Shown here one piece after another: positions 53,109 to 57,421 of a DNA stretch of 64,000 nt. Source of the DNA: Patescibacteria group bacterium (GTDB lineage Bacteria > Patescibacteriota > Minisyncoccia > Moranbacterales > GWC2-37-73); NCBI GenBank assembly GCA_022709565.1, contig JAKLIO010000001.1, positions 73,927-137,926 on the forward strand, written 5' to 3'. The notes under the pieces were generated by a model. It was not told where the DNA came from. It made no database searches and saw nothing but the letters and a program-made list of their open reading frames with translations. A program made the translations under genes and the position numbers. The stretch's first letter is position 1. Each line of letters starts with the position of its first letter.

Positions 53109-54950
53109 TTAATAACGAGGCATAATGAACACAATCCAGAGAATAACGCTAATAATATTTAAAGTTATCATAGAAGCAGACAAGATTTTTTCTGACATTT
53201 TCGCTTCTAATATCCCTAGCATTAATCCCGCGAGACCAAAAATAGGAAAGACCGGAGAAATAATAATATCCACTATCGACTGCTGGAGAGACTTGGGATT
53301 TAAATAAAAAATTAACATTAAGAGCATAGTGCCTGCTCCAATAATTAACGAAAAGACAGCCCTTATTTTGTGCTCTGTTGCGTCTACTCTTTTTTCTTCT
53401 TCTGTTATAATTTTTCTTTTCCAAAACTTTTTTGTTATAGCTATTATCAGAAAAATAAGAGCAATAATACCTAGCATTACCAGCGTGGACTTGTCATCTT
53501 CCTCATCGCTTAGCTCAACTTCTTCTTTCCACCAGCGATTAAGCTGATCTGGTTCAAAAGACTGGGGTTCTTCCAATAAGCTTCCGTCTTTCAGGAAAGC
53601 AAACTGTCCCTCATTAATTTCAATTTCTTTCTTGTTTTTCGCGTCAGACACCAGCACTGTTCCCTCAATAACCGCAATGCTTGTGCCAGAGCTATCGTTT
53701 TCCACCGCGAATTCCGTTCCTTTTATTCTGATAGTTCCGTTGGGAGTATTGACTTGGCGGCACGACTCAGAAAGAAGAGCTCCGAAAGCGCAAAAGCTGT
53801 TAGGACCGAGGAATTTCTCATAATTAAATTTAAACTTACCAATATTAGTCGTTAGCTCAAACTCAGAATTAGGAGTTAATGAAGAATATTGATCCATTTC
53901 TACAGTTGAACCGTCTTTCATTAGAATTGTAATCCTATCAAGGATTTTGGATTTTATCTGTCCCTTCTCTCCATATATCAAATCCTGATAATTTATTTCT
54001 GTGGATTTAGCAGGTGCAAAAGCAGATTTAATAGAATCTATTAGGCCAAGTTCCGGCTTATCCGATTTATTTTTTTCCAATTTAATATTAATCACTTTGC
54101 AAACTTTTCTTCCGGAACCGTTTTTTACGCAAGCTTCAAAATGGTCGTCTTTGCCCACCGGCGTACCTTTCAAAACTCCATTTGGCCATAGTGTAAGTCC
54201 CATTGGAGGAAATCCGCCCATTGTGTTATAAGAAAAAGTATAAGGTCCTGATTGATCTCTTGGGTCTAGCAATTGAATCAATTCGAAGGAAAAATCGCGT
54301 TCATAGGGTTCGCCTTTTTTTATTATTATAGGCTCGGGCAAATCAGCTTCCTCTGACCAGCCACCTGAAGAAGGGATGGTTCCCATTTTTGTTAGGTCCC
54401 CTTCCCAGTAAGGAAAACATAAAGGATTAGGATCATCAGTATTTGGTGACTCCCATACTTTCTGGCAAATTTCTTTTTCGTCACCGATATATTTAAAGTA
54501 ATGTTCGGTATAGAAGATTCCGGTCACCTTCCAACCCTTGTAATTTCCGTAATTGTCGTAATGTGGAATTGAGTTAACCTTTTTTAACAAACAGCGATCT
54601 TCCGTGTCGACTTCAATAAAATATTCTTCCTTGTAGTCGGTTCGTATAAAATCTTTTTTTTCTTTGGCATATTGCTCACATTCTCCTCTGGGTGACATAT
54701 CTTTTAACTGCTCTTCTAACATATTTTGCGTACCACTTAGAGCTTCTTTTGCCTGCTTTTCTAGGTCCGCAGGGTTTGTTGCACTATTATTAGCATTTTT
54801 AATTAGATCATAAGCTTGATCTATTTGCTTTTTGACTTGATCTTCAGTGTCCTTGGAAGTGCCTTGGGCATTATAATAATTAGGCAGCAACAAAAAGGCG
54901 GCGCAAACTGCAAAAGCGAAAATAAGTAGCGATGATTTTTTTGTAGGCAT
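53109..54950 (-). CDS. Secreted/membrane hypothetical protein (613 aa) with HeP-Ig-like and FecR-like segments and C-terminal transmembrane helices
   Basis: Signal peptide MPTKKSSLLIFAFAVCAAFLLL. YTFSYNTMGGFPPMGLTLWPNGVLKGTP resembles the putative-Ig (He_PIG) motif. GTIRIKGTEFAVEN...IEGTVLV is FecR-like. There are 3 C-terminal transmembrane helices. Confidence 0.55.
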   Translation of the reverse strand: MPTKKSSLLIFAFAVCAAFLLLPNYYNAQGTSKDTEDQVKKQIDQAYDLIKNANNSATNPADLEKQAKEALSGTQNMLEEQLKDMSPRGECEQYAKEKKDFIRTDYKEEYFIEVDTEDRCLLKKVNSIPHYDNYGNYKGWKVTGIFYTEHYFKYIGDEKEICQKVWESPNTDDPNPLCFPYWEGDLTKMGTIPSSGGWSEEADLPEPIIIKKGEPYERDFSFELIQLLDPRDQSGPYTFSYNTMGGFPPMGLTLWPNGVLKGTPVGKDDHFEACVKNGSGRKVCKVINIKLEKNKSDKPELGLIDSIKSAFAPAKSTEINYQDLIYGEKGQIKSKILDRITILMKDGSTVEMDQYSSLTPNSEFELTTNIGKFKFNYEKFLGPNSFCAFGALLSESCRQVNTPNGTIRIKGTEFAVENDSSGTSIAVIEGTVLVSDAKNKKEIEINEGQFAFLKDGSLLEEPQSFEPDQLNRWWKEEVELSDEEDDKSTLVMLGIIALIFLIIAITKKFWKRKIITEEEKRVDATEHKIRAVFSLIIGAGTMLLMLIFYLNPKSLQQSIVDIIISPVFPIFGLAGLMLGILEAKMSEKILSASMITLNIISVILWIVFIMPRY

Positions 54951-54962
54951 ATTTTTTATTTT

Positions 54963-55004
54963 ATTAGTTATTCACGTGACCCCTCACGTGAGGCCTCACG
55001 TTAC
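54963..55004. promoter_or_regulatory. 42 nt repeat, copy 2 (TCACGTGA palindromes), ending 13 nt upstream of the start codon of gene 53109..54950
   Basis: attagttatTCACGTGAccccTCACGTGAggccTCACGTtac. Confidence 0.5.
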
Positions 55005-55056: not shown

Positions 55057-55087
55057 AAATAACAAAAAAGCACCCAAGAATGGATGC
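55057..55087 (-). terminator. Probable terminator after the tRNA-Asn 3' exon
   Basis: On the minus strand: AAAAGCATCCattcttGGGTGCTTTTTTGTTATTTTTT. Confidence 0.45.
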
Positions 55088-55137
55088 TTTTGATTTATGC
55101 TCCGCGACCAGGACTCGAACCTGGAACCAATTGATTA

Positions 55138-55741
55138 CACATTATCTCTTTGTTTCCAAAAAGGGTGGACTATATCATTCCCACTCTTTTATAAAAGGGC
55201 GGGATGAGGCGCTTCCTGGGATTAAAAATCCAAGTACTCTCTTGCGAGATAGTCTCTGAACCTTCCCTAAAAGGGTTTGGCTGCTGATTACCATAATTTC
55301 TGCTGAGAAATTTTAGGCTTCCAGTCCCGATATTATCAATTTTGTAATTGAATAAAACCGAGATCCCATTTTATTGGGACAATTCACCTCATTCTTCACT
55401 TCCAAATTTCTTTGGAAGGCTGCGAATATTGTTGTGCAATTCCCTATGGCAATTCGCGCACACAAGAATACATTTGTCAATTTCATTTTTTATTCTTTCC
55501 CAACTGCGAGTTAAACCATCTTGGGAAATTGCAAAATCCTTTTTTGAAGAATCATTATGATGAAATTCTAATGCATCACTGCAACGATCATAACCACAAA
55601 GTGCACATCTACCACCTCCGTATTGAACTGCCATTTCTCGAAGTTTTCTTCGTCTTTTCGAAACAGCTTTGATCATATACTCTCGGCGGTCAGCATATTT
55701 TCGGGTTTCCTTCATATTTTTTTAAATAAAGGATGTGTACC
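55138..55741 (-). mobile_element. Group I self-splicing intron carrying an HNH homing endonuclease gene
   Basis: The intron 3' region carries the catalytic-core consensus elements R (GGTTCAGAGACTATC) and S (AATGATATAGTCC), giving P7 pairing GACUA/UAGUC, and a Q-like AATCAGCAGCCAAACCC. The intron ends in G and the 5' exon ends in U. The first 330 nt hold an HNH ORF. Confidence 0.7.
55389..55715 (-). CDS. HNH homing endonuclease (intron-encoded)
   Basis: CALCGY...LEFHHNDSSKK...N...CILVCANCHRELHN is the HNH/His-Me finger with two CxxC zinc knuckles. 108 aa. Confidence 0.85.
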   Translation of the reverse strand: MKETRKYADRREYMIKAVSKRRRKLREMAVQYGGGRCALCGYDRCSDALEFHHNDSSKKDFAISQDGLTRSWERIKNEIDKCILVCANCHRELHNNIRSLPKKFGSEE

Positions 55742-55815
55742 ACAGTCAACTGCTCTACCATTGAGCTATCGCGGAATATTAAGTTGTAAAAAATTGCTTT
55801 TTAAGGCAACAAGGG

Positions 55816-55844
55816 CATTATAACAGGACATTTTTCATCTGGCA
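55816..55844 (-). promoter_or_regulatory. Sigma-70-type promoter for tRNA-Asn
   Basis: On the minus strand: TTGCCA, a 17 nt spacer, then TATAAT, about 40 nt upstream of tRNA position 1. Confidence 0.5.
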
Positions 55845-55861
55845 AGAGTAGCGAGTAAGCA

Positions 55862-55978: not shown

Positions 55979-57421
55979 TTAGTAGTCTTTCAGCTTGCCA
56001 ATTGTCCTGTTCTGTCTGATCTTTTCCAAGGCCTTGGCTTCAATTTGGCGGATACGTTCGCGGGTAACGCCGAATTCTTTGCCCACCTCTTCCAAAGTAT
56101 GCGTGACGCCGTCTTCCAAACCGAAACGGATCTTGAGAATTTTCTGTTCACGCGGAGTCAGCTCCCGCAAAACTTCACCAACATGATTTTTAAGCAATTT
56201 CCTGGAAGCCACTTGATGCGGCATAACTGTTTCCGTATCTTCAATAAAATCTCCCAACACGCTGTCATCATCGCTATCGCCGACAGAAGTTTCAAGCGAT
56301 ACTGTCTCCTGCGAAATTTTTTGGATGTGTCTTATCTTATCGACATCCAAATCCATTTCAGAAGCTATTTCTTCCGCTAGCGGTTCGCGTCCCAATTCCT
56401 GCACTAATCTTCTGGTTATCTGCGTATACTTGTTGATTGTTTCCACCATGTGCACTGGAATCCTGATCGTTCTGGATTGATCCGCCAAGGCGCGCGTAAT
56501 GGCCTGGCGAATCCACCAAGTCGCATAAGTTGAAAATTTGAAACCTTTTCGGTAATCGAATTTTTCCACGGCGCGAAAAAGTCCTATGTTGCCTTCCTGA
56601 ATCAAATCCAAAAGCGAGAGATTATGGGAACGGCCCACATATTTCTTGGCAATGCTGACAACCAGACGAAGATTGGCTTCAGTTAATTTCTGTTTTGCCA
56701 TGAGATCTCCTTTTTCGCTGGCTTTGGCCAGTTTGACTTCTTCTTCAGTTTTAAGCAGCGCCACCCGTCCAATTTCCCGAAAATACATCTGAACCAAATC
56801 GGAAGAACTGTCTTCTATTCCTTCGCCCAAAAGCGCATCGGCAGTCTTGTCTTTTTTGCTCTTTTCATATATTTCAACTTCTTTGTCCGTGTCAATTTTG
56901 AGCATATCGTCAGAAACGACAATTTTCACTCCGGCAGTTTCCAGCTGTTCATACAGATTTTCCAGTTCAGCAATCTCTTCTTCAACATCAGGAATAAGAT
57001 TAATTATTTCATCCTCCGTCACAAAGCCGCGCTGCTTGCCACGCGCAATGAGTTCCGCGATTATATCAATCTTTTCCGGAAATTCTCCCTGGATTTCTTT
57101 GGCTATTTTTTTCTTGCGGACAACTGGTTGTTTTTTAGAAGATACTTTTTTAGGTGCTGTTTTTTTCTTCACGCTGGCAGTTTTCTTCTTGGCGATTTTT
57201 TTAGCTTTCTTAGGGAAAGGCTTTCTTGCTTTTGTCGGTTTAGCGATCTTCTTTTTTTTCATTTTTTTCACAAGGTTATTTTTTTTATGATTTTTATTTT
57301 TTCCTGCGCCAACGGAAAACTTTCGGACAGCTTTCTTTCCGACTTTTTTAAGCGGCTTCTTTTGCTTTTTTTTCATTTTTTTAGAATAAAGAGTGAAGAT
57401 TTTATTATAAACAAACACCAA
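55979..57421 (-). CDS. rpoD: RNA polymerase primary sigma factor (sigma-70) with a Lys-rich N-terminal extension
   Basis: Region 1.2/2 ([60 protein letters not shown]), region 4 ([26 protein letters not shown]), and the classic dnaG-rpoD gene order. Confidence 0.9.

Follow-up and report, generated by a model that had tools for sequence, protein, structure and literature searches.

The 64-kilobase (kb) stretch of contig JAKLIO010000001.1 considered here (64,000 nucleotides, nt; hereafter the window) carries on its minus strand two halves of a tRNA gene, 34 and 38 nt long, that are separated by an intervening sequence encoding a small HNH protein (Table 1). It is very likely that the halves constitute a single tRNA-Asn(GUU) gene of Candidatus Moranbacteria (Patescibacteria), split between positions 35 and 36 by a 604-nt group I intron of subgroup IA that is removed by splicing. 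Five proteins of the window (DnaG, a FecR-domain protein, pyruvate kinase, a helicase, and the product of the HNH open reading frame, ORF) are exact matches to NCBI proteins of 'Candidatus Moranbacteria bacterium'. The host is a member of the Patescibacteria, as are those of the tRNA-Asn intron family with which the element is compared below.

Joining the exons produces a 72-nt tRNA-Asn(GUU) that is accepted by ARAGORN, with the pair U1-A72, the discriminator G73, and the anticodon loop CUGUUAA; CCA is absent from the encoded 3′ exon. Identical 34- and 38-nt exons occur uninterrupted in 25 metagenome contigs, where they read ...GACTGTTAATC..., these intron-less alleles having been found by a metagenome scan with a degenerate 3′-exon pattern. 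The junction is thereby fixed as CUGU/UAA (Asn, 35/36) independently of ARAGORN. Since the locus is base for base the same in independent ENA and JGI assemblies (L001-L003), it is not an assembly artefact. No second copy of tRNA-Asn was found in the 64-kb window.

Most of this layout had been proposed in an earlier reading of the letters alone (the sequence-only reading). It described two tRNA halves on the minus strand, 604 nt apart, that join into a 72-nt tRNA-Asn with the landmarks listed above, and an intron that enters the anticodon loop after a U and ends in G. Both halves were located, the terminal bases agree, and the position in the anticodon loop matches that implied by the 25 uninterrupted alleles.

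Table 1. Features of the tRNA-Asn locus, in window coordinates. Helix numbers refer to the alignment of 37 related ribozymes; "changed on both sides" refers to those relatives.
Feature	Coordinates	Strand	Remarks
rpoD terminator	55888-55871		consensus scan
Sigma-70-like promoter	55817..55845	-	TTGCCA, 17-nt spacer, TATAAT, TG just before the -10; consensus scan, 11/12 matches; function putative
5′ exon of tRNA-Asn(GUU), positions 1-35	55742..55775	-	34 nt; ends ...CUGU, final base U35
Group I intron, subgroup IA type	55138..55741	-	604 nt; GGUACA... to ...AAUGUG; omega-G at 55138
P1 5′ strand	55740..55745	-	exon CUGU + intron GG; read from sequence; U35 in U-G wobble at 5′ splice site
HNH endonuclease ORF	55389..55715	-	108 amino acids; inside P1 loop; stop UGA 55391-55389
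P1 3′ strand (internal guide sequence)	55420..55425	-	UCGCAG; GCAG (55423-55420) pairs with exon CUGU
P2 hairpin	55399..55418	-	CUUCCAAA GAAA UUUGGAAG; helix 1; 8/8 pairs changed on both sides
P3 5′ strand	55385..55390	-	GAGGUG; pairs with 55211-55206 (CGCCUC); helix 2
55-nt insertion	55325..55379	-	two hairpins (UCCCA..UGGGA, UCUCG..CGGGA); P3/P4 junction, between UG (55381-55380) and CUGG (55324-55321)
P4-P6 domain	55260..55324	-	helices 3-7
P4 5′ strand	55324-55321	-	CUGG; P4-P6 domain; UG at 55381-55380 completes the strand
P5/P5a	55317-55291	-	P4-P6 domain
P4 3′ strand	55287-55282	-	UCAGCA; P4-P6 domain
P6/P6a	55281-55260	-	P4-P6 domain
P7 5′ strand	55250..55254	-	GACUA, inside R element GGUUCAGAGACUA; pairs with UAGUC 55172-55168; matches Rfam consensus
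P7.1	55249-55238	-	UCUC GCAA GAGA; helix 9; 3 pairs changed on both sides
P7.2	55234-55215	-	helix 10; 4 pairs changed on both sides
P3 3′ strand	55211-55206	-	CGCCUC; helix 2
P8	55204-55179	-	helix 11
P7 3′ strand	55172-55168	-	UAGUC; helix 8
P9	55163-55146	-	helix 12
3′ exon of tRNA-Asn, positions 36-73	55100..55137	-	38 nt; UAAUCAAU...GCGGAG
Terminator-like hairpin, then T run	55066..55091	-	consensus scan; conserved in sister locus L130

The Group I Ribozyme

The group I core anticipated by the sequence-only reading is detected by Rfam RF00028 (Intron_gpI) as a full-length match (model positions 1-253) at 55423-55146 (-), scoring 55.8 bits (gathering score 50; E 1.8e-11), which is the sole match of this model in the window. 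R1, a covariance model trained on 37 tRNA-Asn introns from other genomes with the window left out, also yields a single hit, at 55424-55139 (-) with 154.8 bits (E 5e-43). The R and S elements and the P7 pairing GACUA/UAGUC that had been picked out by eye are present.

Helices P2 to P9 were drawn by group I conventions on the alignment of the 37 ribozymes, again excluding the window, which resulted in 12 helices; the window maps onto all of them. Among the related ribozymes, 89.8% of cells are paired, compared with 69.5% in shuffles and at most 47% in slid controls, and 436 cells are changed on both sides (138 in shuffles). Such changes occur in 40 of the 55 pairs over the twelve helices. In P3, 96.8% of cells are paired and three pairs have changed on both sides. 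P7 does not vary among the relatives, in which it is paired throughout, and covariation therefore speaks neither for nor against it. The assignment to subgroup IA follows from the extra hairpins P7.1 and P7.2, located between P7 and the 3′ strand of P3.

The pairing at the 5′ splice site is also conserved. The GCAG of the guide is invariant in the 37 introns, and the pair between intron position +1 and the base 5′ of GCAG, compared in 72 related introns, is G-C in 55, A-U in 6, G-U in 4, and C-G in 1, being unpaired in the remaining 6. The 55-nt insertion at the P3/P4 junction has counterparts at the same site, with two hairpins and different sequences, in nine relatives (L007, L008, L010, L023, L027, L030, L068, L072, and L073). 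The fourth stem pair of its first hairpin is C-G, U-A, or G-C, a compensatory pattern.

The Intron-Encoded HNH Protein

A complete 108-amino-acid HNH ORF near the 5′ end of the intron, another element of the sequence-only reading, was recovered. It is matched by the HNH families of PHROG (phrog_2255, E 6.9e-28), and PF01844 is a precomputed annotation on some of its homologues; searches with the NCBIfam profiles returned no match for the ORF. The protein has 966 homologues, the named ones chiefly from Patescibacteria. Residues C37, C40, H52, H53, C86, N88, C89, H90, and H94 (CxxC, HH, N, CxxCH, H) are invariant in 23 aligned homologues, and together they make up an HNH catalytic motif with a CxxC...CxxC zinc site. 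The ratio of nonsynonymous to synonymous substitution rates (dN/dS) against relatives is 0.09-0.18, which indicates that the protein is maintained by selection.

The 3′ strand of P1 lies approximately 320 nt downstream of the 5′ strand, so the ORF sits in a large P1 loop. Its final ∼35 nt cover the 3′ strand of P1 (the guide) and the whole of P2 and J2/3, and extend 2 nt into P3. This overlap accounts for the conserved S/Q-L-P residues near the C-terminus of the protein. Judging from the overlap, full translation of the ORF and folding of the ribozyme would be mutually exclusive on one RNA molecule.

Relatives in Bacterial Genomes

Relatives of the HNH protein are encoded in at least 551 species genomes, other phyla included. 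The 80 best loci from species-representative genomes were retrieved with the HNH alignment; the tRNA-Asn architecture CTGT/intron...G/TAA is found in 73 of them, with the HNH gene inside the intron in 68. The tRNA of the window recurs in identical form without an intron (the 25 contigs), with introns of 215 and 241 nt that lack the ORF, and with introns of 551-614 nt that bear it, while a near-identical allele with two different exon positions contains introns of 325 and 616 nt. In a sister lineage (L130) whose rpoD is 94% identical over 1543 nt, an intron-less tRNA-Asn occupies the same position and the same terminator stands further downstream. The intron is thus present in some alleles and absent from others, the distribution that characterizes homing endonuclease genes. 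To judge by sequence comparison, this mixture is what a cycle of invasion, ORF decay, and loss would be expected to leave. It sits uneasily with the limited mobility of tRNA introns inferred from a survey of 95 complete Patescibacteria genomes (Nakagawa et al., mSystems 2026, PMC13011429; bioRxiv July 2025).

The sister locus L130 (Ga0116154_10009486, reverse-complement 1674-2254) also contains an insertion of ∼496 nt after its intron-less tRNA-Asn. Within it are a 29-nt repeat, present in five tandem copies, and a 93-amino-acid ORF that, by eye, resembles a small GIY-YIG nuclease. At its boundary the 3′ end of the tRNA is repeated (CCTGGTCGCGGAGC), and the original terminator resumes beyond this repeat. 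A second kind of mobile insertion, probably a nuclease-bearing one, thus makes use of the same tRNA gene.

Five other loci (L018, L033, L040, L053, and L064) combine an ORF-less tRNA-Asn intron of 230-266 nt with a free-standing HNH gene directly beside the tRNA; in L064 the gene ends 47 nt upstream of it. These could be steps before or after residence of the ORF in the intron. Two further loci have irregular exons. In L004 (Logan SRR8925812_202267, 1-700), the 5′ exon is that of the window and the intron is 99.7% identical over 600 nt. From P9 on, the intron tail and the tRNA-Asn 3′ exon (TAACCAATTGGTCGGGGG...) both differ from those of the window, with an A31-C39 mismatch in the anticodon stem. 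Its downstream genes also differ, including a Y1 transposase, and L005 stops at the same point. L004 represents a recombinant allele or else a chimera made in assembly. In L072 (JAUSEV010000013.1, tRNA 1433-2120), the anticodon-stem strands GTGA of the 5′ exon and TCCC of the 3′ exon pair incompletely, and this could be a hybrid allele left by co-conversion.

HNH-bearing tRNA-Asn introns are also seen in genomes labelled Omnitrophota, two of them complete chromosomes, and in a 2.9-Mb chromosome labelled 'delta proteobacterium' (the loci of this set being L074, CP070684.1; L077, CP070807.1; L082, OY970063.1; and L023, L037, L038, L041, L044, L052, L070, and L079). Some labels of the form 'TPA_asm uncultured ...' look unreliable. 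For instance, L009 is labelled Bdellovibrionales and has the rpoD-tRNA-Asn order of the window at 77% identity.

Relatives in Phages

A scan of viral contigs identified at least 560 relatives of the HNH protein with 46-65% identity. Of the 80 best (L160-L239, IMG/VR), 79 are situated within arrays of phage tRNA genes. In 50 of the 80 loci an intron-less tRNA-Asn(GUU) is the tRNA closest to the HNH gene, usually 0-15 nt downstream, and tRNA-Asn represents 14% of all tRNAs there; the loci include many near-duplicates, and these counts are not independent. The same arrangement of HNH gene and tRNA-Asn is found in the RefSeq Yersinia phage fHe-Yen9-04 (NC_042116.1, 309324-309956), in its own annotation. 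A ribozyme of the type found in the window is present at only three viral loci. At L185 (IMGVR_UViG_3300012979_000043), two such ribozymes (766-944 and 2041-2213; 70-71 bits each) flank an HNH gene within 1.5 kb.

It is possible, if somewhat short of probable, that the HNH clade is a tRNA-Asn-specific lineage of homing endonucleases with free-standing and intron-borne forms. The free-standing form may reside next to intron-less tRNA-Asn genes in phage arrays and, in some bacteria, next to tRNA-Asn introns that lack an ORF; in Patescibacteria and Omnitrophota, the intron-borne form may occupy the P1 loop of the tRNA-Asn intron. If true, the intron would still be actively homing in populations of Moranbacteria, possibly carried by phages, contrary to what the published survey inferred, namely that tRNA introns of Patescibacteria are largely immobile. 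The two forms would also amount to a natural series suited to the Bonocora-Shub model, according to which an endonuclease gene that stood free enters an intron at its own target site.

Alternative Explanations

Several observations weigh against a spliced tRNA-Asn intron that encodes a homing nuclease. With the Pfam HNH model (PF01844) the ORF falls under the threshold (14.9 vs 21.4 bits), and a PDB sequence search returned no close solved relative, the best matches being a group II intron maturase (6ME0, HNH-containing C-terminal region, E 3e-4) and McrA. The protein is short, has no recognisable separate DNA-binding domain, and is encoded from an ATG that no Shine-Dalgarno-like sequence precedes. 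As for the ribozyme, the structure-aware R1 alignment assigns the 55-nt insertion to the loop of P5, at the cost of three pairs in P4; since the insertions of the nine relatives fall precisely between UG and CUGG, the position chosen by hand there is preferred. The intron that has been spliced in vitro (GCA_016700035.1) has no such insertion, and the case for splicing of the present copy is made from homology and comparative patterns. Finally, the survey of tRNA-Asn genes covers the 64-kb window, and a second, intron-less copy may be located elsewhere in the genome.

The strongest alternative accepts splicing and regards the HNH protein as no longer a homing enzyme, whether inactive, repurposed, or a splicing aid, with the intron inherited only vertically. 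This would suit a very small protein without a DNA-binding module of its own, as well as the limited mobility inferred in the published survey (PMC13011429), and purifying selection alone leaves the kind of function unspecified. Vertical inheritance alone is harder to reconcile with the presence and absence of the intron among alleles with identical exons, the 94%-identical sister lineage included, and with the 215-325-nt derivatives of the intron that sit in this tRNA and lack the ORF. None of the catalytic and zinc-binding residues varies among the 23 homologues, relatives extend to other phyla and at least 551 species genomes, and the free-standing phage relatives that adjoin tRNA-Asn in 50 of 80 loci imply a family-wide tie to tRNA-Asn DNA. 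Loss of the homing function is accordingly considered unlikely.

Far less probable still is a decaying pseudogene, with an intron that has lost the ability to splice and a different tRNA-Asn gene supplying the cell's needs. The limited view of the genome leaves room for such a gene, and the 55-nt insertion in the core could be taken as a sign of decay. That insertion, however, occupies a site shared in structured form by several lineages, and all core helices are intact and fit the covariation pattern of the family. The exons are the same as those of intact tRNA-Asn genes, the promoter and terminator are intact, and the ORF is intact and under purifying selection. Moreover, genomes rarely have both an intron-containing and an intron-less copy of one tRNA (PMC13011429).

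A tRNA-Thr(UGU) with its intron at 33/34, reported by ARAGORN -i as tRNA-Thr(tgt) i(33,604) and likewise offering, two bases upstream, a U before the 5′ splice site and a G at the intron end, has next to no probability and was rejected: the uninterrupted alleles with identical exons show the Asn junction; the Asn junction is possible in 73 of 73 related loci, whereas the Thr junction is lost in the many where the intron ends in ATG, TTG, or CG rather than GTG; the U-G wobble at the end of P1 arises at the Asn site only (CUGU vs GCAG); and the same miscall by ARAGORN and tFind has been documented and refuted by a sequenced spliced product (PMC13011429).

Proposed Mechanism

For the spliced tRNA-Asn intron, the following course can be proposed. 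The gene would be transcribed from its own promoter into a precursor of ∼750 nt. The last four bases of the 5′ exon (CUGU) and the first one or two of the intron would pair with UCGCAG, forming P1 around the ORF loop, and the P3-P9 core, including P7.1 and P7.2, would fold. A guanosine would then attack after U35, following which the terminal G of the intron (55138) would direct exon ligation. Ligation would restore the anticodon loop CUGUUAA, the predicted spliced junction being ...GACUGUUAAUC....

The HNH protein would presumably be translated from either the precursor or the excised intron. Its most likely action is to nick or cut intron-less tRNA-Asn genes, after which repair would copy the intron into them. 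This homing step, taken by itself, is probable. The nuclease activity, its target, and the expression of the ORF are all deduced from homology and comparative patterns.

Transcription Signals and Neighboring Genes

A consensus scan recovered the signals that the sequence-only reading had described around the gene, namely a sigma-70-like promoter upstream (TTGCCA-17-TATAAT) and a hairpin terminator after the 3′ exon. The promoter-like site lies between the rpoD terminator and the tRNA, ∼40 nt before the 5′ end of the latter. In line with the sequence-only reading, the tRNA gene is flanked on the upstream side by rpoD and dnaG; on the downstream side lies a gene for a FecR-domain protein. The gene order rpoD-tRNA-Asn is common to genomes of Moraniibacteriota and Parcubacteria, at 67-77% nucleotide identity.

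Two features of the neighboring genes may be recorded. At 54972-55002 (-), downstream of a promoter-like site (55037-55009) and ahead of the FecR-domain gene, which starts at 54950, (C)ACGTGA(GG) occurs three times at a spacing of ∼11 nt, and these copies could be an operator. The RpoD ORF opens with a very lysine-rich extension of ∼110 amino acids ahead of region 1.1 (57080-57421, -). Because RpoD is called at 465 or 479 amino acids in other assemblies, its true start is uncertain.

Significance

Introns of this kind were already published in 2025-2026, and the window is a further clean example rather than a discovery. As the kind is known and a relative has been shown to self-splice, the locus in itself carries little weight. 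What is new here is the position of the ORF in the P1 loop with its 3′ overlap, the 55-nt insertion, and the intron-less alleles, including that of the sister lineage. Also new are the relatives of the nuclease in at least 551 species genomes and those in phages, usually beside tRNA-Asn. The wider survey suggests that draft genomes contain far more nuclease-bearing tRNA-Asn introns than the four from complete genomes would lead one to expect, and that phages share the tie between this nuclease family and tRNA-Asn DNA.

Standard annotation fails at such loci. ARAGORN in default mode found nothing at this one and in intron mode calls a tRNA-Thr, and the HNH nuclease is annotated as 'hypothetical protein' in NCBI. 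Failures of this type distort completeness estimates for small genomes. The locus lends itself well to experiments, since its ORF is intact, a sister lineage offers a defined empty site, and the same tRNA also occurs with introns that lack the ORF.

Comparison with Known Systems

The closest known systems are the introns described in the survey of complete Patescibacteria genomes, which reported 15 group I introns that interrupt tRNA-Asn(GUU) at 35/36, nearly all of subgroup IA (PMC13011429). Four of these encode HNH (PF01844) genes (GCA_016699425.1, GCA_023898525.1, GCA_000503835.1, and GCA_001029735.1), and a tRNA-Asn insertion with an HNH ORF is thus not the unusual combination that the sequence-only reading had taken it for (PMC13011429). 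In the survey, nuclease-bearing subgroup-IA introns at 35/36 were confined to Patescibacteria, and a tRNA-fMet intron class of the Synechocystis type was listed as well (PMC13011429). An ORF-less tRNA-Asn intron (GCA_016700035.1) self-spliced precisely in vitro at 35/36, the junction being sequenced, and the limited mobility was inferred from complete genomes only, a limitation that the authors flagged (PMC13011429).

The window intron resembles the HNH-bearing introns of the survey in phylum, tRNA, insertion site, and an IA core with P7.1 and P7.2. Its order of parts is that of the introns in Table S3 of the same work, with the HNH family first at the 5′ end, followed by ...GCAGC, P2, the core, and ...GGUGAAUUG, and it provokes the same Thr(UGU) miscall by ARAGORN. 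Without the 55-nt insertion, the ribozyme shares 79% of aligned positions with the intron of GCA_016700035.1, and its identity to the introns of GCA_016700035.1 and GCA_016699245.1 is 78-79%. In site (35/36), IA architecture, and homology of sequence and structure, it belongs with this family. It differs from the published introns in coming from Moranbacteria and in its two-hairpin insertion at the P3/P4 junction. The survey (PMC13011429), in which the introns spliced in vitro were ORF-less relatives only, does not describe that the ORF occupies the P1 loop or that it overlaps the guide, P2, and P3. These comparisons place the window intron among the nuclease-bearing members of a family of which one member has been shown to self-splice.

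Among other anticodon-loop introns, those of Anabaena tRNA-Leu(UAA) and Azoarcus tRNA-Ile are self-splicing group I introns in which the anticodon stem helps to align the exons. They differ in belonging to subgroup IC3, in having no ORF, and in their positions at 34/35 or 36/37. The tRNA-fMet intron of Synechocystis PCC 6803 is likewise a bacterial group I intron of the anticodon loop, with its own homing endonuclease that targets the tRNA gene. That enzyme, I-Ssp6803I, is of the PD-(D/E)XK type and not HNH, the intron is at 33/34, and the host is a cyanobacterium.

A related core combined with an HNH nuclease is found in subgroup-IA introns of phages, such as those encoding I-HmuI (SPO1 DNA polymerase) and I-TwoI/I-BasI. 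These differ in their protein-coding host genes, larger enzymes, extra DNA-binding modules, and ORFs in other loops. Part of the window core is 78% identical over 77 nt to sequence inside the DNA polymerase genes of Felix-O1-like phages, presumably the introns of those genes. Free-standing homing endonucleases in phage tRNA arrays include HNH enzymes of phage T5. Another is T4 SegB, a GIY-YIG enzyme (PMC2330249). Like SegB and the T5 enzymes, the phage relatives of the window HNH protein reside inside tRNA arrays, mostly beside tRNA-Asn; unlike the window protein, SegB and the T5 enzymes are encoded outside introns.

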